Positions 37,937 to 58,308 of a DNA stretch of 64,000 nucleotides are shown here, in pieces. The notes beneath the pieces were generated by a model, which ran no database searches, was not told the origin of the DNA, and worked only from the letters and a program-made list of their open reading frames with translations. The stretch's first letter is position 1. The number at the start of each line of letters is the position of its first letter. The position numbers were made by a program, and so were the translations under genes. The stretch lies in IMG/VR virus record IMGVR_UViG_3300026473_000783, one strand, 5' to 3'. The stretch comes from a virus. Taxonomy: Duplodnaviria > Heunggongvirae > Uroviricota > Caudoviricetes.

Positions 37937-38512
37937 TTATTTTAAAGCCTCTAAAATAGCGAGTTTATCTTTAAGACCTTTTAAAGTGGACTCATAGGTT
38001 GAATTATCAGAAACAATTCGGCAAGATCGATATAAACCATTTTTTTGATATTTTTCCAAATAATGGAGCCACTCTTGAACTGTCATATCGAATGAATTGC
38101 CATAACAATTTAAATACCCTTTAATTTTTTGAGAGATTCCTTTTAATGATTTTATTTTATTATGTGAACAATAAAAGTCTCCATCAACTTCTTTAGGACA
38201 AAACTCTAATGATTCAAGTTTATTAAACGAACAATGAAAAATTCCATGAACTTCTTGAGGACAACCCTCTAATGATTCAAGTAAATTATATGAACATTTA
38301 AAAAATCCACGAACTTCTAATGGACAACCATATAATGATTTGAGTTTATTATAGGCGCAATCAAAACATCCATCCACAATACCAAATTGAAAAGGAATTT
38401 TTTCCAAATTTCTATAACGAAGATCAACACTTTGAAAACAATCTAAAATGCCCGTTTTTTCAAACTTTTCTTTATCATATTTGGTGATTCCAAAATCTTC
38501 AGGCTTTTTCAT
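37937..38512 (-). CDS. family-A LRR-like protein
   Basis: MKKPEDFGITKYDKEKF..., CSYNxLxSLxGCPxEV repeats, tail CRIVSDNSTYESTLKGLKDKLAILEALK; sigma-28-like motif 38530-38556 lies inside track ORF. Confidence 0.6.
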   Translation of the reverse strand: MKKPEDFGITKYDKEKFEKTGILDCFQSVDLRYRNLEKIPFQFGIVDGCFDCAYNKLKSLYGCPLEVRGFFKCSYNLLESLEGCPQEVHGIFHCSFNKLESLEFCPKEVDGDFYCSHNKIKSLKGISQKIKGYLNCYGNSFDMTVQEWLHYLEKYQKNGLYRSCRIVSDNSTYESTLKGLKDKLAILEALK

Positions 38513-38529
38513 AATTATCCTTTTTAATT

Positions 38530-38556
38530 TTTTCGGCATTTTTCTTAAAAACTTTA
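38530..38556 (-). promoter_or_regulatory. sigma-28-type promoter candidate
   Basis: TAAAGTTT-N11-GCCGAAAA upstream of LRR gene. Confidence 0.5.
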
Positions 38557-38587
38557 ACTTATTATAAGAAGTGTTAAAATAAAATTT

Positions 38588-38980
38588 TTATTTTTTAATC
38601 AGCTGCTTAAAAAGGCTGAATCCTACAATTAAAGAAGAGATCCATCCGTAAATATCGGCTAAATTTGCTACACACCACCCTAAATTGATAAAATCTACAA
38701 CCCCGTTAGAATCGAATCTACCAATGTAATTGCCTAGAAATGAGGCTAAAACAAAGCTATAAGCCCATTGTTGCGTTTTTTTAGATTCAATCATAGAAAC
38801 TGTATAAATTGAAAAACAAATCAATCCTAGAGGTAATATGAACTTTACCGTATCATTTGCTAATAGGTTAAAAACCATATCTTTATTGTAGACGACTAAA
38901 TCACTAAAAAAAATAGTGGCTATTTTTTTTGAGATAAGGTCTAAACTAAGTAAAAAGATTGTTTTAACAGTTGTGTTCAT
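38588..38980 (-). CDS. signal peptidase II (LspA)-like membrane protein
   Basis: Paralog of 21030..21422; start reassigned to MNTTVK Met, 15 nt from the -12. Confidence 0.5.
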   Translation of the reverse strand: MNTTVKTIFLLSLDLISKKIATIFFSDLVVYNKDMVFNLLANDTVKFILPLGLICFSIYTVSMIESKKTQQWAYSFVLASFLGNYIGRFDSNGVVDFINLGWCVANLADIYGWISSLIVGFSLFKQLIKK

Positions 38981-38991
38981 AATCAACCATC

Positions 38992-39120
38992 GTAGCAATT
39001 GATAGGCCAATTTAAAACAAACCTATTCGATTTAATAGATAGGATTGTTTAAAGATTTGATAGAAATACTTTAAGTTATTGATTTTACTAGATGTAAAAC
39101 TTTTAATCGATGTCAAAAAA
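38992..39120 (-). promoter_or_regulatory. sigma-54 promoter cassette
   Basis: TTGGCCTATCAATTGCT; UAS 39077-39120. Confidence 0.6.
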
Positions 39121-39158
39121 ATAACTATCAATTCTATAAAATTTTTTAAAAAACATCT

Positions 39159-39311
39159 TCACTCATGTTTTTTACTTTTTTTCTCGTTTTCAATTTCCCA
39201 AGAGTTTTTAAATCGTTTATCTGTTTTACAATAAACCTGACTTTGACATCCACATCCTTTAAATAAAAACATTAAAACTATAGGTGTTAAAAAAAATAAA
39301 ATAGCTTCCAT
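39159..39311 (-). CDS. small membrane peptide (50 aa)
   Basis: MEAILFFLTPIVLMFLFKGCGCQSQVYCKTDKRF...; second gene of a small sigma-54 operon; below ORF-track cutoff. Confidence 0.3.
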   Translation of the reverse strand: MEAILFFLTPIVLMFLFKGCGCQSQVYCKTDKRFKNSWEIENEKKSKKHE

Positions 39312-39326
39312 TTTGGATAATCCTTT

Positions 39327-39434
39327 CTAGTCGAACGCCTCTGACTCTTCATTTAAGACTTTGATATATTCTGCTGATATTGAGCCTGATCTATCCTCTA
39401 CACAGCTCATTTTTGGCATTTTCTTTTTATTCAT
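39327..39434 (-). CDS. small protein (35 aa)
   Basis: MNKKKMPKMSCVEDRSGSISAEYIKVLNEESEAFD; RBS AGGAGATAAAT; directly downstream of sigma-54 cassette 39456-39592. Confidence 0.3.
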   Translation of the reverse strand: MNKKKMPKMSCVEDRSGSISAEYIKVLNEESEAFD

Positions 39435-39455
39435 ATTTATCTCCTATCAATTACT

Positions 39456-39592
39456 GTAGCAATCTTTAGGCCAATCTTTAAATGAATCTATTCGATTTAA
39501 TAGATAGGATTGTTTAAAGATTTGATAGAAACTTTTTAAGTTATTGATTTTATTAGGTGTCAAAGGTTTGTGCGGTGTTTAAAAGATGTTTA
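39456..39592 (-). promoter_or_regulatory. sigma-54 promoter cassette
   Basis: TTGGCCTAAAGATTGCT; UAS 39543-39592; drives two small-peptide genes. Confidence 0.6.
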
Positions 39593-40000
39593 CATAAAAT
39601 AGTCTAAAATAGCTTTTTTTTCTTTAAGATTTTCAAGAGTAATCTCATAGTTAGTATTTCGGACGATCCGAATATATGGATATATATGTTGATTTTTTTC
39701 TAAAGCGATAAGACACAAATCAACCGTTTGCTCTTTTATGTATTGAATGCAATATGATGATATTTCAACGCTTTTTTTACATAAATTATTTGATTGGGTT
39801 GAGATTAAAGAAAGCACTGAATTATCTATTTCTATGTACTTTAAAACTTTTTCTTCACTTAATGAATTAAAATAATTTTTAAAAAGATAAAATTCTTCTT
39901 TTGTACAAAAATTATATTCAGGCCATAAATCAATAGATTGCCAAAAATGGTTTTCTTGAACTTTTTTTAAGAATAATTCTTTAATTTTTTGATTTGTCAT
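39590..40000 (-). CDS. family-B DUF4116-like repeat protein
   Basis: MTNQKIKELF...IRIVRNTNYEITLENLKEKKAILDYFM. Confidence 0.5.
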   Translation of the reverse strand: MTNQKIKELFLKKVQENHFWQSIDLWPEYNFCTKEEFYLFKNYFNSLSEEKVLKYIEIDNSVLSLISTQSNNLCKKSVEISSYCIQYIKEQTVDLCLIALEKNQHIYPYIRIVRNTNYEITLENLKEKKAILDYFM

Positions 40001-40431
40001 TTAAAAGCCTCTAAAACAGCCTTTTTTTCTAATAAATTCTGTATAGTTTTTTCATGATCTGGATTTGGGACTATTCTAACGAAATTGTGGCAATAATTAT
40101 CAACTTCTAAAGATTTAAGACATAAATCAACTGTTTGAGATCTAATATGCACAAGATTGTAAGGGTTGCATTTTATAGCAAATTCACATAATTCTTTGGT
40201 TTGATCTGTTATAGCAGAAAAAATTGAGCTATCTTTTTCTATATATTTTAAAATCTCTTTTTCGCTTAGTTGATTAAGCCAAATAATAAAATCCTCCATT
40301 TCTTCTGGATCACAAATACCGTTAAAAACCCAATCTTCGAAGCAAATAAGGTCATGCGTTAAATTTTCTTTAAATTTTTCTTTAACTTCAATTCTGTTTA
40401 AAAATCTTTTGTAAGGTTTTAAATTTTTCAT
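39997..40431 (-). CDS. family-B DUF4116-like repeat protein
   Basis: ...VRIVPNPDHEKTIQNLLEKKAVLEAFK; 4-nt overlap with next gene. Confidence 0.5.
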   Translation of the reverse strand: MKNLKPYKRFLNRIEVKEKFKENLTHDLICFEDWVFNGICDPEEMEDFIIWLNQLSEKEILKYIEKDSSIFSAITDQTKELCEFAIKCNPYNLVHIRSQTVDLCLKSLEVDNYCHNFVRIVPNPDHEKTIQNLLEKKAVLEAFK

Positions 40432-40439
40432 TTTATCCT

Positions 40440-40859
40440 TTATTTTAAAGCGTTTAAAAGTTCTTTTTTCTTTTTTAGATTTAAAAGAGTTGTCTTAAAA
40501 TCAGGATTTGGGACAATTCTTACATGTTTGTGAATATGAACCTCGTATGAAAATTTATCTAAAGCCGTTAAGCAAATGTCAACAGATTGCTGGTTTTGAT
40601 TAATAAATTCTAAAAGTTCAGGATAAGAATCTAATATAAAAAGAATTGATTCTTCACTTAAGTCTTTTGCGATTATTTTAAAAGATTGTTGAAAGTCTTT
40701 ATCGTATCGAAGGTAAGTTTTTAAATTTTTTTGAGAAAAAATCAATATGTTTTCATTTTTTGTATTTATATAATCTTTTAAAAGCAAGATTTGTTTTTTT
40801 CTTGTAGTAAAAATTACAAACAAAATATATGTTAAAAATCCAAAAAAAACAAAATACAC
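40440..40859 (-). CDS. family-B-like protein with N-terminal TM
   Basis: ...VRIVPNPDFKTTLLNLKKKKELLNALK. Confidence 0.45.
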   Translation of the reverse strand: MYFVFFGFLTYILFVIFTTRKKQILLLKDYINTKNENILIFSQKNLKTYLRYDKDFQQSFKIIAKDLSEESILFILDSYPELLEFINQNQQSVDICLTALDKFSYEVHIHKHVRIVPNPDFKTTLLNLKKKKELLNALK

Positions 40860-40933
40860 GATGTAAATAAGAGATATGGAATCTCTTCATCGGTAAAAAA
40901 TGTTTTATAAGATTTTAAAAAATTCATTTTTTC

Positions 40934-41284
40934 CTATTTTAGGTTTTTATTTCCCTGATTTGGGAAAATTGTTTTTAAAGGATAGTCTCCTCTAATTGTG
41001 TAAAGTAAAAGTTTAGGAGTTCTATAAGCTTGAACGCTTGAATCTCCATGCCAAAGATCTATTGAGTTTTCTAGATCTTTTTTTGAAATCGAGTTAATTC
41101 CTAATTCTTTTAATTTGAATAAAACGGTTTCAACATTTATTGATTTTTTCTCAAGTAAGCATATTGATAAGTCTCTTAAAAAATAAGAGTTAATTATTTC
41201 TTTTTTAGATAAATATTTAATTGAGGTTATTGACTTTTCTGTAATTTCTTTTTCTTCTATTAAAGATTCTGGAACTTTTTTCAT
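40934..41284 (-). CDS. hypothetical protein (116 aa)
   Basis: ORF only. Confidence 0.35.
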   Translation of the reverse strand: MKKVPESLIEEKEITEKSITSIKYLSKKEIINSYFLRDLSICLLEKKSINVETVLFKLKELGINSISKKDLENSIDLWHGDSSVQAYRTPKLLLYTIRGDYPLKTIFPNQGNKNLK

Positions 41285-41394
41285 GTATTCTCCTTATAAG
41301 GATTGTCGGGATTTTTTTAAAAAGCTTTAGCTTTTTTTTAATTTTGATTAAAATCGAGACACTTTTTGATAATTTTATCAAAATAAGTCAAGTT

Positions 41395-42159
41395 CTATTT
41401 TAAAGCTTCTAAAATTGATAGTTTTTCTTTAAGTCCATTTAAGGTGGATTCATAGGTTGAATTATTTGGAACAATTCGGCAAGATAGATATAAATCACTT
41501 TTTTTATACATTTTTAAATATTTAATCCACTCTTTAGCGCTAATATCAAATGGATTGTTTTCACAACAAAGATATCCTTTAAAATTTTCTGGAAATCCTT
41601 TTAATGATTTAAGCTGATTATATACACAATAAAAATCTCCACCAATTTCTTTAGGGCAACCTTCTAATGATTCAAGCAAATTATATGAACAACTAAAACT
41701 TTCATGAACTTTTAATGGACAACCTTTTAATGATTTGAGTTGATTGCGTGAAAAATCAAAATCCCCTTCAACTTCTTTAGGACAGCCTTCTAATGATTTT
41801 AGTTGATTGCTGGAACAGACAAAATCTCCATTAGTTTTTTTAGGACAATCCTCTAATGATTCAAGTTGATTATTTGAACAATCAAAATTGCCATTGACTT
41901 TTTTAGGACAACCCTCTAATGATTTAAGTTGATTATGTGAACAATCAAAAAATCCATTAACTTCTTTAGGGCAACCTTCTAATGATTTGAGTTGATTATT
42001 GGCACAATCAAAAAATCCATCCACAATGCCAAATTGAAAAGGAATTTTTTCCAAATTTCTATCGATAAGATTAACCCCTTGAAAGCAATCTAAAATTCCC
42101 GTTTTTTCAAACTTTTCTTTATTATATTTAGTGATTCCAAAATCTTCAGGTTTTTTCAT
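41395..42159 (-). CDS. family-A LRR-like protein (254 aa, ~8 repeats)
   Basis: CSHNQLKSLEGCPKEVNGFFD-type repeats; RBS AAGAGGAG; sigma-28-like motif 42177-42203. Confidence 0.6.
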   Translation of the reverse strand: MKKPEDFGITKYNKEKFEKTGILDCFQGVNLIDRNLEKIPFQFGIVDGFFDCANNQLKSLEGCPKEVNGFFDCSHNQLKSLEGCPKKVNGNFDCSNNQLESLEDCPKKTNGDFVCSSNQLKSLEGCPKEVEGDFDFSRNQLKSLKGCPLKVHESFSCSYNLLESLEGCPKEIGGDFYCVYNQLKSLKGFPENFKGYLCCENNPFDISAKEWIKYLKMYKKSDLYLSCRIVPNNSTYESTLNGLKEKLSILEALK

Positions 42160-42176
42160 TTATTCTCCTCTTTAAT

Positions 42177-42203
42177 CTTTTCGGAACTATTCTTAAAAAC
42201 TTT
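42177..42203 (-). promoter_or_regulatory. sigma-28-type promoter candidate
   Basis: TAAAGTTT-N11-TCCGAAAA upstream of LRR gene. Confidence 0.5.
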
Positions 42204-42207
42204 AATT

Positions 42208-42759
42208 TTATTTTAAAGCCTCTAAAATGGCTTTTTTCTCTAATAAATTTTTTAAAGTAGTTTCATAATTTGGATTTGGAACAATTCTAATATAATTACA
42301 AGCATTTCTTCTTTTTTGTAAAGCTAAAATACACAAATCAATTGTTTGTTCTTTAATCAGCGCTATGTTATACGGATCTTTTTCAATAGCTAAACGACAT
42401 AAGTAATCGGTTTGATTTCGAACATATTCAAAAGTCCAAGGCGATTTATTTATTGCTAACTCGCATAAAAATTCTGTTTGGTTATTTAAAAATCTAATAC
42501 AGGTTGGAGCTTTTTCAATAGCAGTTTGACAGATCGATTCTGTTTGATTTTTTATAACTTTTAAAATTGAAGGATCTTTCTGTATATATTTTAATAACTG
42601 TTTTTCACTTAATTGATTTAACCAATTTGAAAAATTATTAAATTCTTCTAAAGAACAAACATTGTCTCTAACCCAGAATCTAAATCCTAAGCTTTCTTTT
42701 TTTAATTTTTTTTCAAATAATTGTTTAATCAAATTTAAAATATCCTTTTGTTGGGTCAA
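42208..42759 (-). CDS. family-B DUF4116-like repeat protein (183 aa)
   Basis: ...IRIVPNPNYETTLKNLLEKKAILEALK. Confidence 0.55.
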   Translation of the reverse strand: MTQQKDILNLIKQLFEKKLKKESLGFRFWVRDNVCSLEEFNNFSNWLNQLSEKQLLKYIQKDPSILKVIKNQTESICQTAIEKAPTCIRFLNNQTEFLCELAINKSPWTFEYVRNQTDYLCRLAIEKDPYNIALIKEQTIDLCILALQKRRNACNYIRIVPNPNYETTLKNLLEKKAILEALK

Positions 42760-43087
42760 AATTAAATTTAAGCTTTGATTTTTTTAATAAATAAACCTCT
42801 AAAGTTGATTTTCTCCATTTCGTTAAAACTTCATACGAACCACTTATTCCTAACATTTCTAAAATTACAAAACAATCCTTATTATTTTTGTCTGTATAAG
42901 AGATGTCGAGCAGCAACGTTTTAGAGTCTTTATCAAAATCTGCCATATCGACAGTATAGTTTTTAGTCTTATTATCAACAAGCATTAAAAACCCTAAATC
43001 TCCCATTTTTAAAACGCGACAAGATTTTATAAATTTTTTCTTTACTTTTTGAGCTTTTTTATTATAGGCTTGAACTTTTATTTTCAT
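42725..43087 (-). CDS. hypothetical protein (120 aa)
   Basis: ORF overlapping start of 42208..42759. Confidence 0.35.
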   Translation of the reverse strand: MKIKVQAYNKKAQKVKKKFIKSCRVLKMGDLGFLMLVDNKTKNYTVDMADFDKDSKTLLLDISYTDKNNKDCFVILEMLGISGSYEVLTKWRKSTLEVYLLKKSKLKFNFDPTKGYFKFD

Positions 43088-43161
43088 AAATTTCCTTCAT
43101 ATAAAATTTTAACATAAATTCTATATAAATGATTATTTTTTTATAAATATCTCAAATCGAA

Positions 43162-43419
43162 TCAATCCTTAAATGAGTCAATAATTGTTTTCTTTTCTAA
43201 TAAATTTTTAAGAGTTGTCTCATAGTCGGGATTTGAAACTATTCTAACATGTTTATAATTAGCTTTATTTTGTCTTAAAGCTAAAAGACAGGTATTAACA
43301 GATTGATCCGGAACGATTTCTAAAGAACCGGAAAGTTGTTCAATAAATGTTTGACCCATTTTGATTGTTTTAAAGTGATCTTCTATAAAATAAAAAGCGA
43401 CTGATTTAGTTTCAGTCAT
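43162..43419 (-). CDS. family-B-like short protein
   Basis: ...VRIVSNPDYETTLKNLLEKKTIIDSFKD; track start 43452 lies inside repeat copy B, Met 43419 preferred. Confidence 0.45.
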   Translation of the reverse strand: MTETKSVAFYFIEDHFKTIKMGQTFIEQLSGSLEIVPDQSVNTCLLALRQNKANYKHVRIVSNPDYETTLKNLLEKKTIIDSFKD

Positions 43420-43430
43420 AACTTTTTCAA

Positions 43431-43648
43431 CTTTTTGGCCGCAATATATCATTGAACCAATCGGAGATTATCTCCGAAATCCTCCGTTAGAAGGTTCTTC
43501 TCTCATCAAAACCAATATATGGTCTCTCCAGAAGCTTAAACTCTAATTTTTTAGAGTTTTCCCCATTAAAGTGGGGTCATGAACTTATTTAACCACTTCT
43601 TCCCTATTTTGTCAAGAAAAAAATAACTCAATAAAATCAATTACTTAG
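43431..43648 (-). repeat. structured ~220-bp repeat, copy B (solo)
   Basis: About 95% identical to 47988-48168 and to the reverse complement of 49865-50085; contains hairpins CCCCA-N6-TGGGG, CGGAGATTATCTCCG, AACTCTA-N7-TAGAGTT; begins with partial UAS and TTGACA-N17-TTAAAT; ends at start of 43162..43419. Confidence 0.6.
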
Positions 43649-43860
43649 TATAGGGGTGTATGATTTTATTGTTGTTTTATGACAAAAACATTAGTAAAAA
43701 CAACTTGAATGAAGTTGAGGGTTTTATGTTTTGTAAATTATTGTTTTTACTTGATAAAATATATTTTAGCAACACTCAAGTATCACTCCCCTGCTTTAAC
43801 TATTTGAATTGATTAGATGTTAAAATTATAGTCAGTGCTTAGAAAATATACAGGTCATTT

Positions 43861-44328
43861 TTATTTTAAAGCTTCTATAATTTCTTTTTTCTCTTTAAGG
43901 TTTTTAAGAGTTGTTTCAAAATCTGGATTTGAAACAATTCTAACATATCTATAAACAAAGCGTTCTTGTTTTAAAGCTAAAAGACATAAATCGACACTTT
44001 GTATTTTTATGCTTTTTAAACAAAGCGGATTACGACTAATCGCAAGTTTAGAAAAATGATAGGCTTGTTCTGAAACAATCCCAATAACCCAAGAATTGGC
44101 CTCAATTGATTTTAAGATAAATTGTTCAGTTTTATTTTCTATTGCTGAAAAAATAGTGTGGTCTTTTTTAAAAAGATCAAACAACTCCTCGTCGTTGAGT
44201 TGATTTGGCCATTTTTTGAAAAGAATCATTTCATTTTCTGTACAGATATTTTCTTTTACCCAATTAACAAATAAATAGTTTTTGTTTTTTTTCTTTTCAA
44301 ATAAATTTTTAATTTCTTGATTTGTCAT
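43861..44328 (-). CDS. family-B DUF4116-like repeat protein
   Basis: MTNQEIKNLFE...VRIVSNPDFETTLKNLKEKKEIIEALK. Confidence 0.55.
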   Translation of the reverse strand: MTNQEIKNLFEKKKNKNYLFVNWVKENICTENEMILFKKWPNQLNDEELFDLFKKDHTIFSAIENKTEQFILKSIEANSWVIGIVSEQAYHFSKLAISRNPLCLKSIKIQSVDLCLLALKQERFVYRYVRIVSNPDFETTLKNLKEKKEIIEALK

Positions 44329-47370: not shown

Positions 47371-47844
47371 TTATTTTAAAGAATCTAAAATAGCTTTTTT
47401 TTCATATAAATTCTTAAGAGTTGTCTCATAATCTGGATTTGGGACGATTCGAACAAAACGATAACTAGAAAAACTTTCTTTTACTAAAGCTAAAATACAC
47501 AAGTCAACGCTTTGTTCTTTTACATAACCAATGGTCAAAGAGTTTCCTCTTACAGCTAATTCACACATTTCTTTTGTTTGATCTTTGATAAATCTAATGG
47601 AAAATGAGTTGACTTCAATCGACATTTCACAGAGAGTTTTTGTTTGATTTTTAATTACAGCTAAAATCGAACAATCACGCTCAATGTAATTTAAAAGTTC
47701 TGATTCTTCAATTGAATTAAAATAATTCGATAAAAGATCAAATTCTTTTTTTGTACAAACCGACTTATCAATCCATTCAAAGAAAAAATCATCGGTTTTT
47801 TGAAATTTTTCTTCAAATATTTTTTGAATATCTCTACTCTTCAT
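47371..47844 (-). CDS. family-B DUF4116-like repeat protein
   Basis: ...VRIVPNPDYETTLKNLYEKKAILDSLK; preceded by repeat copy A and 65-bp leader shared with nuclease gene 50138. Confidence 0.55.
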   Translation of the reverse strand: MKSRDIQKIFEEKFQKTDDFFFEWIDKSVCTKKEFDLLSNYFNSIEESELLNYIERDCSILAVIKNQTKTLCEMSIEVNSFSIRFIKDQTKEMCELAVRGNSLTIGYVKEQSVDLCILALVKESFSSYRFVRIVPNPDYETTLKNLYEKKAILDSLK

Positions 47845-48168
47845 TTATTTATCCAATAGCCTTTTTTTTCATATCTTTATTTTACATTTTTTTATTTAAA
47901 AAAACAACTATTTTAAATACTTGTCTCCTTTTTGGTCGCAATATATCATTGAACATTTATTCAGTGGGTTTCGATGAGAACGTGTATCTTTTTGGTCGCA
48001 ATATATCATTGAACCAATCGGAGATTATCTCCGAAATCCTTCGTTAGAAGGTTCTTCTCTCATCAAAACCAATATATGGTCTCTCCAGAAGCTTAAACTC
48101 TCCGAGGAGTTTTCCCCATTAAAGTGGGGTCATGAACTTATTTAACCACTTCTTCCCTATTTTGTCAA
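47845..48168 (-). repeat. structured repeat copy A plus shared 65-bp leader, immediately 3' of tnpB
   Basis: Element 47988-48168 abuts tnpB stop (48178); 27-nt terminal segment duplicated (47928-47954 and 47988-48014) around a unique 33 nt; 47845-47927 is the inverted copy of 50086-50147. Confidence 0.6.
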
Positions 48169-50085
48169 ATAAAAGATTCAAAGAATTTTATTGTTTTTCT
48201 TTGTATTTGAAATTTTAATAAGACCTCTTCCAACTTTATAAATAACAAGTGCGGCATTATGATCTGCGTCCATTCTGTAATTACAACTGGTACAGATAAA
48301 TTTTTTGTCTTTTCGACTATCTTGATCCGTCTTCCCACAACAGCTACAAGTTTGAGAAGTGAACTTAGGGTCAACTTTTTTAACATTTTTTGAGTACTCA
48401 TTTAATTTTTGAGCAAAATAACCCCAGTTTTTAGAAAGAATAGATCTGTTTAAACCAGTTTTTTGAGAAACTTTCTTTCCAGGATTGTCAACATTGCCTT
48501 TAGCTGTTTTTGTCATATTTGATATTTTTAAATCTTCAATATAGATATCTTCACTTTTTTTCGCAATTAAAGTGGCTTCTTTTTTTAGAAAATTTTCTTT
48601 TTGTCTTTTAAGTTTTAATTGAAGCTTTGAGATTTTTCTAATTTCTTTTTTAAAATTTTTAGAGTCTCTATCTTTTTTTCTTCTATACAACATAGATTTC
48701 TTTTTTGGAATTATTTTTTCTAAATTTAAAATATATTCTGGAAAATCAATGCTTTTATATTTGACCTGATTTGGGTTTTTATTTGACACAATCGCAATAG
48801 CGGTTTTTGTTGAAATACCTCGGTCAATTCCAACTGAGCTTTTTTTGACAACTTCTTTTTTTACAGTTTTTTCTTGAATAGAAAAAATTACAAACCACTC
48901 ACTTCCCTCTTTTTTAAACTGAACAGTTCTTACATTTTCAACTAGAAAAGGTTTAAAGCATTTAAATTTCAAATATCCAAGGTCAAATTTTTCTTTTATA
49001 TCTTCATAATTTTTAGAAATACAAAAATAAGCATATGAAGAATTTGAATTTTCTTCAAAAGTCGTGTTCCATAAATTTTTAAACGCATTTTTAAAACCAA
49101 TAAATCCACTGTCTCTCTCACTTTTATAGCGAGGAATTCCAGCTTTTTTCGGGTCTTTTTTTAAATTTCTAAAAAATTGTTTATAAGAATCCTCACTTTT
49201 ATCAAATACATTATTAAAAAAGCTTGAACAAAACGGAAGAATTTTGTTTTTACGATTCTTTTTCATTTGAGTAAATTCTTTTTGTAGAACAGCTTTTGAA
49301 AAATTTTCATTTTTAAATGAACTTTGGAAATGATAAGGAATCTTGATTGAAAATACTTTTTTGTCTTTTTTCGATAAGTTCAGCTCTTTTCCAATGTTTG
49401 AATTAAGCCTGTTTTCAAAATTAAAGAAAACAACTGTTAAAAAACTTCTTAATTTATTCCGTTCCTTTAACTCTTCTTCTTTTTCGCTATCTTTTAGTTT
49501 TTTAAATTTATCAAAACTTGCTGAAATCAACTCATTTAATTCTTTAATTCTACGATCCGAAATTTTGATCGATTGTCTTTCCGCGATTTTTATTATTTGT
49601 TTCGCATCGAAAATATCTATTTTGTCTTTTTTCTCAATTTTATTAAAATTATAAAAATCTTGAGATTCTATTTGTTTTTCAACAATCGCATTCCATAAAT
49701 CTTTAGAAGCATTTTCCATTTTTTCTAAAATTGATCTCTGTTTTTCATTTAAATATAGTTTATATTTATAGTTTTTTATAGTCGTTTCCATATATTCATT
49801 TAAACACATTTTTCAATAAAAATAAAGAATTAAGACTTTGAACCTAAAAAAATATGTATTTTTCTAAGTAATTGATTTTATTGAGTTATTTTTTTTCTTG
49901 ACAAAATAGGGAAGAAGTGGTTAAATAAGTTCATGACCCCACTTTAATGGGGAAAACTCTAAAAAATTAGAGTTTAAGCTTCTGGAGAGACCATATATTG
50001 GTTTTGATGAGAGAAGAACCTTTTAACGAAGGATTTCGGAGATAATCTCTGATTGGTTCAATGATATATTGCGACCAAAAAGGAG
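47988..50085 (-). mobile_element. candidate TnpB-only IS200/IS605-like (IS1341-type) element, or tnpB inserted between inverted promoter-leader repeats
   Basis: tnpB bracketed by inverted ~200-bp repeats; no tnpA; the right-end/omega-RNA-like structured sequence sits directly after the tnpB stop. Confidence 0.45.
48178..49809 (-). CDS. tnpB: TnpB-family RNA-guided endonuclease homolog (IS200/IS605 OrfB / Cas12-like), 543 aa, catalytic motifs intact
   Basis: N-term NYKYKLYLNEKQRSILEKM...LWNAIVEK (TnpB HTH pattern); RuvC-I VGIDRGI; RuvC-II IYIEDLKISNM; zinc finger CSCCG...CTSCNYRM; RuvC-III DADHNAALVI; ~140 aa longer than typical TnpB. Confidence 0.75.
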   Translation of the reverse strand: MCLNEYMETTIKNYKYKLYLNEKQRSILEKMENASKDLWNAIVEKQIESQDFYNFNKIEKKDKIDIFDAKQIIKIAERQSIKISDRRIKELNELISASFDKFKKLKDSEKEEELKERNKLRSFLTVVFFNFENRLNSNIGKELNLSKKDKKVFSIKIPYHFQSSFKNENFSKAVLQKEFTQMKKNRKNKILPFCSSFFNNVFDKSEDSYKQFFRNLKKDPKKAGIPRYKSERDSGFIGFKNAFKNLWNTTFEENSNSSYAYFCISKNYEDIKEKFDLGYLKFKCFKPFLVENVRTVQFKKEGSEWFVIFSIQEKTVKKEVVKKSSVGIDRGISTKTAIAIVSNKNPNQVKYKSIDFPEYILNLEKIIPKKKSMLYRRKKDRDSKNFKKEIRKISKLQLKLKRQKENFLKKEATLIAKKSEDIYIEDLKISNMTKTAKGNVDNPGKKVSQKTGLNRSILSKNWGYFAQKLNEYSKNVKKVDPKFTSQTCSCCGKTDQDSRKDKKFICTSCNYRMDADHNAALVIYKVGRGLIKISNTKKNNKIL

Positions 50086-50147
50086 ACAAGTATTTAAAAT
50101 AGTTGTTTTTTTAAATAAAAAAATGTAAAATAAAGATATGAAAAAAA
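49865..50147 (+). repeat. structured repeat copy C (inverted relative to A) plus 65-bp leader running into nuclease gene
   Basis: Begins with truncated UAS (taagtaattgattttattgag), then TTGACA 49898-49903 -N17- TTAAAT 49921-49926, then structured region, then leader identical to the one upstream of 47371..47844. Confidence 0.6.
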
Positions 50148-51729: not shown

Positions 51730-52128
51730 ATGGCAAATAACCCCACAAACTATAAACAAGTCATTTTAATTCGTGAAGATCTCAATTTAAGTGCTGGAAA
51801 ACTTGCCGCTCAAGTTGCTCATGCTTCGCTAGGAGCTATTTTATCTATTTCGAAAATTGAAGATAAAAAATTAACAATTGAGCTGGATGATCCTACTTTT
51901 CTTTGGATTAGTGAGCGATTTACAAAAATTTGCTTAAAAGTAAAAAATGAAGAAGAGCTTCTGTTCTACTACAATAAAGTTAAGGAATCAAACTTAAAAC
52001 ATGCGATTATAAAAGATGCTGGCTTTACTGAGCTTGAATCTCCAACATTGACTTGTCTAGGGATTGGTCCTGATTTCAATGATAGGATTGACGCAATTAC
52101 AAAAAAATTAAGGCTATACAACAAGTGA
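51730..52128 (+). CDS. peptidyl-tRNA hydrolase PTH2 family
   Basis: KQVILIREDLNLSAGKLAAQVAHAS....DAGFTELESPTLTCLGIGP....KKLRLY matches PTH2 signature. Confidence 0.65.
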   Translation: MANNPTNYKQVILIREDLNLSAGKLAAQVAHASLGAILSISKIEDKKLTIELDDPTFLWISERFTKICLKVKNEEELLFYYNKVKESNLKHAIIKDAGFTELESPTLTCLGIGPDFNDRIDAITKKLRLYNK

Positions 52129-52634
52129 AAAAACCTGAAGATTTTGGAATCACTAAATATGATAAGAAAAAGTTTAAAAAAACTGGAATTTTAGATTGCT
52201 TCCAGAATGTCAATTTAAGTAATCTAAAATTAACAAAAATTCCCTTTAACTTTGGAACCATTGAAGGTTTTTTTTCTTGCTCAAACAATAATTTAAACTC
52301 ATTAAAAGGATCTCCAAGAATTGTTTCAGGTAGCTTTTATTGTTTTAACAATAAATTAAAATCATTAAAAAATTCTCCAGAAAAAGTTTTTTGTGACTTT
52401 TATTGTGATAATAATAAATTAAAATCTTTAAAAAATATATCAGAATGCCATCGAGACGTTTATTGCGAAGAAAATCCGATAGATATGACAGTAAAAGACT
52501 GGATTGAGGTTTTAGAAAAATGTCCAAATAGCGATTTATTCAAATACTGTCAAATAACTTCTGACAATTCAACTTATGAGAATGTCTTAAATTGTCTTAA
52601 AGAGAAATTAGCTATTTTAGAAGCTTTAGATTAA
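52125..52634 (+). CDS. family-A LRR-like protein
   Basis: GTG start overlapping PTH2 stop (GTGA); VKKPEDFGITKYDKKKF...; tail YCQITSDNSTYENVLNCLKEKLAILEALD. Confidence 0.55.
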   Translation: MKKPEDFGITKYDKKKFKKTGILDCFQNVNLSNLKLTKIPFNFGTIEGFFSCSNNNLNSLKGSPRIVSGSFYCFNNKLKSLKNSPEKVFCDFYCDNNKLKSLKNISECHRDVYCEENPIDMTVKDWIEVLEKCPNSDLFKYCQITSDNSTYENVLNCLKEKLAILEALD

Positions 52635-54459: not shown

Positions 54460-55038
54460 TTAGTCAAAAAGAGCTAATATAGCTTGTTTTTCTTTTAAAC
54501 CTTTTAAAGTCGACTCATAAGTGGAATTATCTGAAACAATTAAACAAAGTTTAAAAAAGTTTCTGCTCGAATGTTGAGTTTTTGTTAAAAATTCTATCCA
54601 CTCTTGGACAGTCATGTCTAAAGGATTTCCAAAAAAAACCATTGAACCTTTTACTTCAGGAAGATTGTTTATTTTTTTCAATTTATTGTATTGACAATAA
54701 AAACCGCCAATAGCTTTTAATGGACTTCCTTCTAATGAAGTGAGTTGATTATAGGAACAATCGCAAATCTGATTGACTTCTTTAGGAAAATACTGTGATG
54801 ATTTAAGTTGATTATGAGAACAATCAAAATCTCCCAAAACTTTTTTAGGAGAACCTTTTAGTGATTTAAGATTATTTACTGATAAAATAAAATCTCCATG
54901 AGCGATTCCAAAATTAAAAGGGATTTCTGATAAATTTCGATTGCTCAAGTCGACATTCTGAAAACAATCCAAAACTCCCGTTTTTTCAAACTTTTCTTTA
55001 TCATATTTGGTAATTCCAAAATCTTCCGGTCTTTTCAT
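54460..55038 (-). CDS. family-A LRR-like protein
   Basis: MKRPEDFGITKYDKEKF...; co-operonic with metzincin gene. Confidence 0.55.
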   Translation of the reverse strand: MKRPEDFGITKYDKEKFEKTGVLDCFQNVDLSNRNLSEIPFNFGIAHGDFILSVNNLKSLKGSPKKVLGDFDCSHNQLKSSQYFPKEVNQICDCSYNQLTSLEGSPLKAIGGFYCQYNKLKKINNLPEVKGSMVFFGNPLDMTVQEWIEFLTKTQHSSRNFFKLCLIVSDNSTYESTLKGLKEKQAILALFD

Positions 55039-55752: not shown

Positions 55753-56652
55753 CTATTTTAAGATTTTATCTTCTAATTCTTTAATAGATAGAGATCCCTT
55801 GTGAATTCCTCTGGGGTCTGATAAAATTATTTTTGATAACCTGTATTGGTTAAGTTTTGATATTTTTCTATATGTAGAGATTTGATTGTTTCTCATATAA
55901 AGCTTTTCTGATTGCTTCACTTCAATTCCAATTTTTTTCGTATTTGGAAAAATAACAAAATCTATTCTTTTTCGGCCAAGTTTGAATTCTTTAATGTATG
56001 GAATTTTTAGTTTTTTAAATAGATTTTCATAAATAGGATGTATTTTGTTAAGTTCAATTCTATTTTGAATTTTGGAAAATGGATTTTGACCTTTCATTAA
56101 ATGATCAAATCGACTAAATTTAACCGATCCGTTTTCACAACAAATCTTAACAAATCTTCTATTTTTAATAAATTGAGTACTTATAAATTTAAATTTTGGA
56201 TTAGCTAGTTTTCCTAATTTATTTATTTTTTCTATAACTTCTTTTTTTGATAGTTTATTTTGAATAAAAGGATTTTTTCTATTTTTTATGTTATCAAAAA
56301 AGGCTTCAATTGTTTTTCCAGTTGTGGCATTTTTAATCTTTATTAAGATTTTAGATTTTTCATTTCGTCTCATTGATACGTAAGAAAATTGAGGAATTGA
56401 TTGTTTTCCAATTTCTTCAACTATTTTTTTAGCTTTAAAATCTTGAATTCTTGAGAAAAGATTTTTATTTTTTGAGATCTTTGAAAAATTTATAGAAATA
56501 ATTTGTTCTGTTTTTAAATTTTGGATTTTAACCAAAATTTGGCCATATTTTCCTCTTTTTGAAGATATGAAAATAAACCTATCTAAAGCTTTTGCTCCAA
56601 TTTGGTTGGTTTTTTTCTTAATTTCCTCATTGCTTAATTTTCTCAAAAACAA
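55753..56652 (-). CDS. repeat protein with C-terminal PD-(D/E)xK nuclease-like domain (299 aa)
   Basis: RIDFVIFPNTKKIGIEVK; same module family as 9454..10806. Confidence 0.5.
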   Translation of the reverse strand: MFLRKLSNEEIKKKTNQIGAKALDRFIFISSKRGKYGQILVKIQNLKTEQIISINFSKISKNKNLFSRIQDFKAKKIVEEIGKQSIPQFSYVSMRRNEKSKILIKIKNATTGKTIEAFFDNIKNRKNPFIQNKLSKKEVIEKINKLGKLANPKFKFISTQFIKNRRFVKICCENGSVKFSRFDHLMKGQNPFSKIQNRIELNKIHPIYENLFKKLKIPYIKEFKLGRKRIDFVIFPNTKKIGIEVKQSEKLYMRNNQISTYRKISKLNQYRLSKIILSDPRGIHKGSLSIKELEDKILK

Positions 56653-56775
56653 ACTCCTCCTTCCAATTATAATCTAAAAATAATTATTTTAAAATTGTTT
56701 TTAAAGAATTGTCTCAAAAATAAGCATCTTAAATGAAATCTTCTTATTTAAAATAAAGCCTAAAAAGGAGCTTAA

Positions 56776-58308
56776 ATGAAAAAATCACAAATCTTGCCAA
56801 CTCTACTTGCCCTTACATTTTCTCTTGTCGCATGTAAAGAAATTGAAGTGGTTAAAACTAAAAAAGGAACAACATCTTCAAGTGCTGCGCCAATGGTTGA
56901 CTATGGAATTGCGCTTTATACAGCTCAAGAAGAATTGCTTGGAACTTCTAAATTGTTCAGTATTGACACAAAAGGTGTTATAAACAAAATACAAAGCGAA
57001 GAAGGCCAAGATCTTGAAAACTTATATATTAACACGGTTATACCTGTTAAAAGCGGCTTGATTTTTTCAGTTTATAATGGAAATTTAAATCAAAGCGAGA
57101 ATTATTTTACAAATGGTAAAACGGCTCAAAAATTAAGCTATACAGGTCAATTTTCAAGCTCAAAAGGTGAAAGTATCGATTATTCAAGATCAGCAAAAAC
57201 ACGCTTTTCTTTTTTCTGTAGCCAAGGAACGGCAATGGCTTGGGATGATAATTTAAAAACAATAACTGCAATTTCTCAGACAAGTGGGAGTTGTCAAGTC
57301 GCTTATTCTCAAAATAAACTTGTCGTGGTTAATTCAGATTACCAAATGTTTTTCATGGGGCCTTCAACGATTTCAACTAAAATCACAAAATTTTCATTTA
57401 ATGAAGATTCTATTGGTGAGCCTGAAGTTATGAGTGATTCATCAAGTTTGATCAACTACGTTGATTCTTTAGATGTTGTTGATAATAAAGTAATTATGAT
57501 TAGAACTATTGGTGCAGATTATTCTAATGTTGTTAGAAGCATTGTTTCAATAAATCTTGACAATAATTCTTCAGAAAATCTTCTTTCAGTTTCTGGAAAT
57601 GATTCATATATTTATAAACTAACTAATAAAAAACTAGATAATGGAAAATTATTTTTTGTTGAACAACGCTATTTTCAAGGTGATAGTTACGATGTTTTAT
57701 ATGAAGACACTCAAAACGTTTACTACTCTTCAACGGGTTATCAAAATCGTAAACTTATCTCTTACAGCAGTCAAGAGGGCTTATCTGTTTTAATCGATAA
57801 AACTTATCAATCAGAAAATTTAGGTTATGAGTTTATTGTTGGAGAAGATACGGCGTTCGTGATTAAAGATCAATACTATCCTTCTCAAGAGGGAGATTCT
57901 TATAGAACTTACAATCTTTATAATTTAAATGATTTAGAAAATCCTATATTAGCTTCATATTACGATAGCAGAGTACCAAGTCAACAAGTCTTCCACTTTT
58001 TAGATCTTAAAACTGGTCTTATTATAGTCTCAAAAGATATGGTTCAGCCAGATCAGCCAACTCAAAAAGAAATAACTGCATACGTTTTACCTTCGGCGAC
58101 TAGAGAATTAGGTGTTGATAAAAGAATTGTGTTGGGGAATTTTAACTATGTTAACTTTATAAACTTTTACGGACAAGTTTTATATAACTATTCAAGTTAT
58201 ATTTCAGAAACGGATTCTTATGAGATGAAAGCCGGATTTGTAAGTGTTCTCAAAGATTCGGCACAAATGATTGAACAGCTAAACCCAATGTTTTTAAACA
58301 ACAACTAG
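56776..58308 (+). CDS. lipoprotein (510 aa)
   Basis: LLALTFSLVAC lipobox; RBS AAAGGAG. Confidence 0.55.
   Translation: MKKSQILPTLLALTFSLVACKEIEVVKTKKGTTSSSAAPMVDYGIALYTAQEELLGTSKLFSIDTKGVINKIQSEEGQDLENLYINTVIPVKSGLIFSVYNGNLNQSENYFTNGKTAQKLSYTGQFSSSKGESIDYSRSAKTRFSFFCSQGTAMAWDDNLKTITAISQTSGSCQVAYSQNKLVVVNSDYQMFFMGPSTISTKITKFSFNEDSIGEPEVMSDSSSLINYVDSLDVVDNKVIMIRTIGADYSNVVRSIVSINLDNNSSENLLSVSGNDSYIYKLTNKKLDNGKLFFVEQRYFQGDSYDVLYEDTQNVYYSSTGYQNRKLISYSSQEGLSVLIDKTYQSENLGYEFIVGEDTAFVIKDQYYPSQEGDSYRTYNLYNLNDLENPILASYYDSRVPSQQVFHFLDLKTGLIIVSKDMVQPDQPTQKEITAYVLPSATRELGVDKRIVLGNFNYVNFINFYGQVLYNYSSYISETDSYEMKAGFVSVLKDSAQMIEQLNPMFLNNN

Follow-up and report, generated by a model that had tools for sequence, protein, structure and literature searches.

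A CRISPR-like repeat-spacer-repeat beside a TnpB-type nuclease gene is most likely a local rearrangement scar

Introduction

CRISPR arrays beside TnpB-type nucleases are currently proposed to have originated by serial duplication of omega-RNA segments (PMC10691335), with splitting of the RNA as the subsequent step (Jin et al. 2025, as cited in PMC13565253). The raw material that this proposal requires is a hairpin duplicated around a unique insert, and one such arrangement, duplicated once, adjoins a TnpB/Cas12-like gene in the stretch of DNA analyzed here (64,000 nt; hereafter, the window). Its first-pass annotation described a mini-array at the end of a structured element and offered two explanations, an incipient two-guide arrangement or a simple slippage or duplication scar. 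Which of these does the locus represent? The analysis below weakens the two-guide proposal, rejects simple slippage, and retains the scar in a different form: the repeat-spacer-repeat is real and is most likely the product of a local rearrangement rather than a working mini-CRISPR array.

A doubled 27-nt repeat that is not an assembly artefact

The plus-strand 27-mer CTTTTTGGTCGCAATATATCATTGAAC is present in exact copies at 47928-47954 and 47988-48014, 60 nt from start to start with a 33-nt segment between them, as had been annotated. When up to 3 mismatches are allowed, the 64-kb window contains four copies, the remaining two being a minus-strand match at 50056-50082 and a copy with 1 mismatch at 43431-43457; 100 dinucleotide-preserving shuffles of the window yielded 0 matches, and a window search at up to 9 mismatches returned no credible extra copy above background. 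We refer to this repeat as R. The element is read on the minus strand, and in this RNA sense the order at the locus is the scaffold including R1 (47988-48014, GTTCAATGATATATTGCGACCAAAAAG), the unique segment X33 (47955-47987, ATACACGTTCTCATCGAAACCCACTGAATAAAT), the second exact 27-mer R2 (47928-47954), and then GAGACAAGTATTT..., all on the minus strand. X33 occupies the expected guide position of the element that we call copy A, and R2 is 60 nt removed from the scaffold end that bears R1.

Three contigs from three samples (ENA ERZ27251563, ENA ERZ27251577, and JGI 3300024350) span R2-X33-R1 at 100% identity, so the doubled repeat is real sequence and not an artefact. The region is repetitive, and the JGI and Logan short-read contigs of the locus break at its edges, and reads from copies A and C could in principle have been mis-joined into a doubled repeat; however, the two ENA assemblies were built at k=141, with k-mers longer than the 87-nt feature, and we regard mis-joining as extremely unlikely. 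The sole difference among assemblies is an A>G change at position 47932 in R2 (converting CCAAAAAG to CCAGAAAG) in JGI contig Ga0255167_1000060, which otherwise matches the window, with one difference in 11.8 kb (L003 position 34). A second contig from the same sample reads A at this position, and the change, which lies at a contig end, may reflect population variation or an end error. We found no variation among the three spanning assemblies.

Three copies of an omega-RNA-like element place the repeat at the scaffold-guide boundary

We aligned the three element copies in the window. Copy A (47988-48174, minus strand), an omega-RNA-like element of ~190 nt delimited by the three-copy alignment, begins 4 nt after the stop codon of the TnpB/Cas12-like gene and ends with R1. 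It opens with a promoter-like site, TTGACA (48168-48163) and TTAAAT (48145-48140) separated by 17 nt, followed by six predicted hairpins (fold z-score, -3.9). The same TTGACA-N17-TTAAAT is found at the 3' end of the ORF encoding P0002, a homologue of the nuclease, on contig L002. Copy B (43431-43648, minus strand) is gene-less, carries a single R with 1 mismatch, and lies 14 nt upstream of the ATG (43416) of a DUF4116-like gene whose protein starts with MTETKSV. Copy C (49864-50082, plus strand) is also gene-less, is inverted relative to A, has a single R (50056-50082), and is located 54 nt upstream of the tnpB-like start. Copies B and C are 97.7% identical over 219 nt and share 28 nt upstream of TTGACA, starting with CTAAG, whereas both are ~93% identical to A, from which they differ at one hairpin tip and in the upstream sequence, which for A is the gene 3' end. 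The copies differ by 4 point substitutions, each located in a stem of the predicted consensus fold, where it converts a Watson-Crick to a G-U pair; on this predicted fold, such pairing-compatible differences are the expectation for a structured RNA. Rfam contains no family matching the element.

The three copies diverge exactly after ...CCAAAAAG; the 3' end of R is therefore the element boundary, at which a guide would begin. The alignment and the fold bear out the earlier view that the repeat is the terminal part of the structured element adjoining tnpB, at the scaffold-guide boundary. R1 comprises all but the first 3 nt of the last hairpin, followed by an AAAG tail, and marks the element end. 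R contains both arms of this terminal hairpin, no segment elsewhere in the scaffold is complementary to it as an anti-repeat partner would be, and its 5' edge lies 3 nt inside the hairpin stem, where there is no structural boundary. R1 itself is continuous with the scaffold of copy A. Thus, in the claimed order of scaffold, unique 33 nt, repeat, and next unique sequence, the unique segment and the repeat after it stand, but the first repeat belongs to the scaffold and the last part, as shown below, is a copy. The annotation had also looked to other element copies for the same 60-nt duplication; there is none in the window.

The flanks of B and C differ from each other, and neither scaffold has an effector gene of its own. 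Both copies therefore have the features of standalone omega-RNAs, that is, a gene-less scaffold with a distinct flank, and each flank would serve as a candidate guide. Copy A, in turn, has the layout of a structured RNA at a gene 3' end that terminates at the element boundary, so that its flank would be the guide. The presence of three copies within 7 kb, two of them with a common 28-nt 5' segment, suggests past mobility; neither an empty site nor a TAM for the element was established in the window. A 22/24-nt look-alike of the reconstructed copy C empty site (TATTTTTGAGACAA...TTTAAAA) occurs at 56699-56722 (minus strand), in the intergenic promoter region of the divergent genes 55753-56652 and 56776-58308. 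Its match to the would-be guide of C stops after 7 nt, so it is not a likely target and is probably a shared promoter-like motif.

Searches of genome, metagenome, and viral contigs with the 27-mer, with a degenerate promoter/5' scaffold pattern, and by protein alignment revealed no related locus, although the metagenome collection evidently lacked the JGI sample that carries this one; spurious ORFs across the scaffold, used as a probe for other copies, also gave no match. The P0002 contig ends 17 nt past the stop codon, before the RNA 3' end, and the Logan contig of the present locus stops 30 nt into shared sequence. The break in the P0002 contig was probably caused by a multi-copy scaffold there too.

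At the 5' end of copy C, a promoter-like TTGTCA-N18-TAAAAT (49904-49875, minus strand; 10/12 matches) faces tnpB. The RNA gene has its TTGACA on the other strand, overlapping the -35 box of this site, and the arrangement looks like a compact divergent promoter. All three copies are directly upstream of, and co-oriented with, a protein-coding gene, the distance from the R end to the ATG being 14 nt in B (the MTETKSV gene) and 55 nt in C (a nuclease), while A precedes a 157-aa gene. The outward element promoters may also drive these downstream genes, in which case the "guides" would overlap 5' UTRs. The tnpB-like gene is also bracketed by inverted arms (47863-48174 and 49892-50147), comprising 191 bp at 93% identity and, outermost, 92 bp that match perfectly. 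Were these arms to undergo homologous recombination, the orientation of the nuclease gene would be reversed relative to both flanks; the assemblies showed no sign of such an inversion.

The second repeat forms one edge of a 92-bp block identical to the end and flank of copy C

The sequence that follows R2, annotated as unique, is not: together with R2, these 65 nt form a 92-nt block (47863-47954) that, when inverted, matches 50056-50147, the end of copy C (its R) and its flank, at 100% identity. This perfect identity contrasts with the 93% identity of the A and C scaffolds. On the C side, the 65 nt (50083-50147, plus strand) are the native flank of copy C and include the ATG (50138) of an Endonuclease_NS gene; this ATG continues in frame as MKKIIYLIVLIAPL... 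and yields a secreted protein of 286 aa. On the A side, the same 65 nt (47863-47927, minus strand) end with ATGAAAAAAA, and their ATG starts an ORF of just 7 codons, shortly before the 157-aa gene (47371-47844). The C side would therefore be the source of the block, since only there does the ATG belong to the Endonuclease_NS frame. The identity stops in the A-run directly after the ATG, so that the copied flank contains the Endonuclease_NS start codon; beyond the patch, the A side continues with a sequence starting AGGCTATTGG. Both junctions of the patch are without microhomology.

Two consequences follow. Because R2 and the sequence after it duplicate the junction of copy C, the R2 unit carries no new guide. 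Moreover, X33 bears no relation to Y, the sequence after R2, which rules out plain tandem duplication or slippage.

The 33-nt segment has no significant match in the collections searched and is partly complementary to the scaffold

X33 has no other occurrence in the window, and its annotation as unique is correct. The protospacer-type match that the earlier proposal called for did not appear: against 50,697 phage and 72,556 plasmid records, the best hits were at chance level (E=3-4), and the 20-nt core of X33 had no exact match in IMG/VR. We considered several local origins and rejected them. A degenerate remnant of the element is rejected by the absence of sense similarity, which 855 of 1000 shuffles equaled. 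An origin as native upstream sequence of the DUF4116-like family fails since its paralogues have no common upstream motif. The segment is also unlike the 5' end of B and C, which excludes both a 60-nt X33+R mini-transposon and a second element after R1.

In the antisense orientation, X33 matches the element at 12 of 13 nt (p ~0.02 per orientation), i.e., it is complementary to GGTTTTGATGAGA in the scaffold (48058-48070; also 43501-43513 and 50000-50012), a sequence present in all three copies. Counting G-U pairs, X33 could form a 14-bp helix with GGUUUUGAUGAGAG, plus ~7 bp with the 5' leader, which adds -13 kcal/mol to the predicted fold of copy A. A single shuffle out of 500 attained this value, as did 11 of 491 random 33-mers from the window and 7 of 300 GC-matched 33-mers. 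The significance of the complementarity is borderline, with p values of 0.002 against shuffles and ~0.02 against random window 33-mers.

The adjoining gene encodes an enlarged TnpB-type nuclease

The nuclease gene (48178-49809, minus strand) encodes 543 aa, although the true start is likely the ATG at 49791 (537 aa), and has matches in Pfam, PADLOC, and the PDB. The Pfam matches are Cas12f1-like_TNB (PF07282, 5e-18) and OrfB_IS605 (PF01385, 7e-8), with HTH_OrfB_IS605 at 18.8 bits, below its curated cut-off of 21; in PADLOC, Cas12f (2.5e-41) and Cas12u4 (2.8e-39) score about equally. The PDB matches are to TnpB and Cas12f/n, the best solved relative being RdCas12n (PDB 9J09; PMC12216341), which aligns over aa 286-522 (E=3.4e-23) and leaves the N-terminal half unaligned; ISDra2 TnpB matches at 1e-12. 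In a seven-sequence alignment, D323, E419, D510, and the four zinc-ribbon Cys residues are invariant, and dN/dS relative to P0002 is ~0.26. The sequence thus has the RuvC-like D/E/D, the zinc-ribbon TNB, and the OrfB_IS605 core that are expected of a TnpB-type protein. This enlarged and rare TnpB is thus under purifying selection and probably active.

An exhaustive HMMER search of 1.84 billion representatives returned 7579 TnpB-family relatives, the nearest outside its own cluster being a 430-aa protein at 40% identity. Only two sequences in the databases searched exceed 50% identity, and the one other close sequence is P0002, at 61%. The AlphaFold model (pLDDT 63; Foldseek TM <0.3) is too poor for subtype assignment; judged by sequence, Cas12n is the nearest solved relative, and membership in a type V subtype is not established. 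Neither a Y1 TnpA (Y1_Tnp) nor a resolvase/serine recombinase was among the families listed for the 91 ORFs of the window. Two of the three predicted guide-RNA genes flank the nuclease gene as inverted repeats, and the combination of a rare 543-aa TnpB with three such promoter-bearing genes may interest those who mine for compact RNA-guided nucleases.

Origin of the repeat-spacer-repeat

We propose, with modest confidence, that the layout is a rearrangement scar in which the 33 nt are copy A's own flank and guide. The locus would be an OMEGA-type system, in which a ~190-nt guide-RNA gene with its own sigma-70-like promoter comes after the gene of an enlarged, apparently active nuclease, and in which the last RNA hairpin and its AAAG tail, together the 27-nt R, abut the guide. 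X33 would fill the guide position of copy A, in keeping with the divergence of the three copies immediately before it. The 92-bp patch, consisting of R and 65 nt of flank with the Endonuclease_NS ATG, would have been copied in inverted orientation from the C junction at a distance of 2 kb and placed so that 33 bp separate it from the end of copy A; R2 would then be the inner edge of the patch and not an independently generated repeat. The repeat-spacer-repeat appearance would therefore be a by-product of R2 being the edge of a copied patch. Non-reciprocal recombination or repair involving copies A and C, which are inverted relative to each other, is the probable mechanism. Once loaded with the scaffold, the effector would take about the first 16-20 nt of X33 as guide; the part from R2 onward would be trailing 3' sequence or the 5' UTR of the downstream gene and add no new target. 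Several observations argue against this proposal. With junctions that lack microhomology, the patch does not point clearly to any standard repair pathway; landing 33 bp from the end of A needs a homology link between A and C, which could not be reconstructed stepwise; X33 is more complementary to the scaffold than ~98% of random 33-mers, which would not be expected of a neutral flank; and the order of events has no support from a related locus or from an allele without the 92-bp patch, none having been found.

The same layout would also result from insertion of 33 nt with exact duplication of the 27-nt repeat, provided that A had earlier gained the flank of C, and this is the basis for reading the locus as a nascent CRISPR-like array. 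Here, gene conversion between the inverted copies would first have homogenized the flank of A with that of C, giving scaffold-R-Y, and a foreign or genomic 33-nt segment would then have been inserted at the scaffold-proximal repeat, duplicating R. The transcript would then contain X33 and Y as hairpin-guide units that the effector could use, which would be the initial step in the model of array evolution by serial duplication of omega-RNA segments. The dimensions (27 + 33 nt) are CRISPR-like, the duplicated unit ends exactly at the scaffold-guide boundary, and the unrelated sequences of X33 and Y are not those of a tandem duplication. The position downstream of the effector gene is that of nearly all Cas12 loci, and many type V variants lack adaptation genes (PMC10691335); the effector, at 543 aa versus ~400, is enlarged, and its best solved relative, Cas12n, is regarded as an early intermediate between TnpB and Cas12 (PMC12216341, PMC11641405). 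On the other hand, this scenario needs two events, one of them through an unknown integrase, with no cas1, cas2, or cas4 among the families listed for the window; its second "guide" is that of copy C, so that no targeting capacity is gained; and X33 has no protospacer match. R is, moreover, a self-contained hairpin, so the R2-guide unit has no anti-repeat tether to a scaffold that ends 60 nt away, and the 5' edge of R lies inside the stem, away from any structural boundary. The single R in B and C and the invariance of the three spanning assemblies also deny it comparative support. We consider this scenario unlikely. Alternatively, X33 and R2 could be an integral part of a full-length RNA, a 3' extension that pairs onto hairpin 3 and the 5' leader and, for example, holds the RNA inactive or stabilizes it, B and C being derivatives from which R-R recombination deleted the extension. 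The predicted 14-bp helix and leader pairing fit such a role, and direct repeats around 33 nt are prone to deletion to a single-R form. However, the pairing stands out only at the ~2% level against genomic 33-mers (and, as a DNA match of 12/13, at the p value given above), it would destroy a scaffold hairpin that is kept in all three copies, it leaves the 65-nt identity to the flank of C beyond R2 unexplained, and a second full-length copy in which to check conservation is absent; we judge this extension quite unlikely. The probability that remains falls to events beyond these readings.

With regard to array origins, the simplest account of this locus is that neighboring element copies recombined and left the arrangement as a by-product, with no new guide; the most it shows is that such proto-arrays can form by chance. 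There is a small chance that it is a natural snapshot of array birth, with the guide-adjacent hairpin doubled around a 33-nt insert in an unsplit omega-RNA beside a Cas12n-like TnpB. If this were true, and both units were processed and used, a functional multi-guide RNA could arise by recombination between element copies, ahead of the tracrRNA/crRNA split and without Cas1-Cas2.

Comparison with OMEGA, Cas12n, TranC, and irregular omega-RNA arrays

Formally, the locus has the parts of an array, namely an exact 27-nt repeat present twice and a single 33-nt spacer, on the downstream side of an effector gene; R2 and the 65 nt after it are a copy of another locus. Tandem Repeats Finder detected no CRISPR array in the window, only 63-nt coding repeats. 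There is no split crRNA/tracrRNA with an anti-repeat, nor a self-sufficient crRNA handle, because R1 follows the scaffold without a break, both hairpin arms lie within R, and the scaffold has no segment complementary to R. Neither a foreign source of the spacer, in the phage, plasmid, and IMG/VR records, nor strain variation in it, among the three spanning assemblies, was found. An adaptation module, which is optional in many type V subtypes, is missing from the 64-kb window: no Cas1, Cas2, or Cas4 was found among its 91 ORFs (non-overlapping, ≥75 aa), judged by 25 of the 31 PADLOC families and all 22 Pfam families. The locus is not demonstrably a type V CRISPR system and, by its sequence features, appears to work like an OMEGA/TnpB system with standalone omega-RNAs.

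With OMEGA systems (IS200/IS605 TnpB, e.g., ISDra2 TnpB, PDB 8EXA/8H1J) it shares the TnpB fold, the RuvC D/E/D, and the zinc ribbon. In both, a structured RNA gene sits at the nuclease gene's 3' end and terminates exactly at the element boundary, so that the flank would serve as guide. Extra effector-less RNA copies in the same genome, a described feature of OMEGA loci (PMC10691335), are likewise present. In contrast to these systems, the protein here is ~140 aa longer than typical TnpBs, with nearest neighbors ~40% identical; the RNA gene lies wholly past the stop codon and has its own TTGACA-N17-TTAAAT rather than overlapping the ORF; no TnpA was found in the 64 kb; and one copy has a doubled terminal hairpin. 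The locus is of the known OMEGA/TnpB kind, and what is specific to it is a one-off structural variant with this doubled hairpin.

Type V-N is close in effector size (540 aa in RdCas12n versus 543 aa here), and the 170-nt tracrRNA and 40-nt crRNA of RdCas12n, with a repeat:anti-repeat stem beside the guide (PMC12216341), are comparable to the fused scaffold and hairpin. Cas12n, however, combines a true CRISPR array with a separate, ORF-overlapping tracrRNA, whereas the RNA here is unsplit and has one 33-nt insert. The crRNA:tracrRNA tether of Cas12n and TranC (PMC12216341, PMC13565253) also has no counterpart in the R2 unit. TranC, a group of transposon-CRISPR intermediates (Jin et al. 2025, Cell, as cited in PMC13565253 and bioRxiv 10.64898/2026.03.27.714800), is described as a TnpB-like effector between transposon and CRISPR. 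TranC repeats derive from the 3' part of the right-end RNA, as R does, and the RNA is functionally split into tracrRNA and crRNA with real arrays. Compared with that description, the present locus differs in that R1 is continuous with the scaffold, R carries both hairpin arms, and the second unit is the junction of a neighboring copy.

Irregular omega-RNA-like arrays (Altae-Tran et al. 2023, PMC10691335) resemble the locus in that omega-RNA sequence is repeated up to a sharp scaffold-guide boundary beside TnpB-family genes; their authors discuss them as a possible alternative route of guide capture (PMC10691335). Those arrays have long repeats (>60 bp) of scaffold sequence, present several times and recurring in a clade, whereas here the last 27 nt are repeated once at one locus.

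Genomic setting

The window has a GC content of 28.9%, with 80 of the 91 ORFs on the minus strand; neither tRNA genes nor Rfam matches were found in the 64 kb, and Pfam matches are few. Those in Pfam and PADLOC include two lipoprotein signal peptidases, a sigma-54 activator (RtcR-like in PADLOC), GmrSD_N, and ORF6N, with further matches to Imm_superinfect, SprT-like, and PTH2. These features suggest an uncultivated low-GC bacterium and possibly a variable genomic island. A giant-virus/Fanzor origin, considered in view of the low GC, DUF4116, and PTH2, was dropped given the lipoprotein signal peptidases, the lipobox proteins, and the sigma-54 activator. Two large paralogous families fill 37937-44328, 47371-47844, 52125-52634, 54460-55038, and other parts of the window. 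One comprises small DUF4116-like proteins ending in ...VRIVPNPDYETTLKNLxEKKAILEALK, and members of the other start with MKKPEDFGITKYDKEKFEKTGILDCFQ and contain 21-aa (63-nt) tandem repeats of the leucine-rich type.
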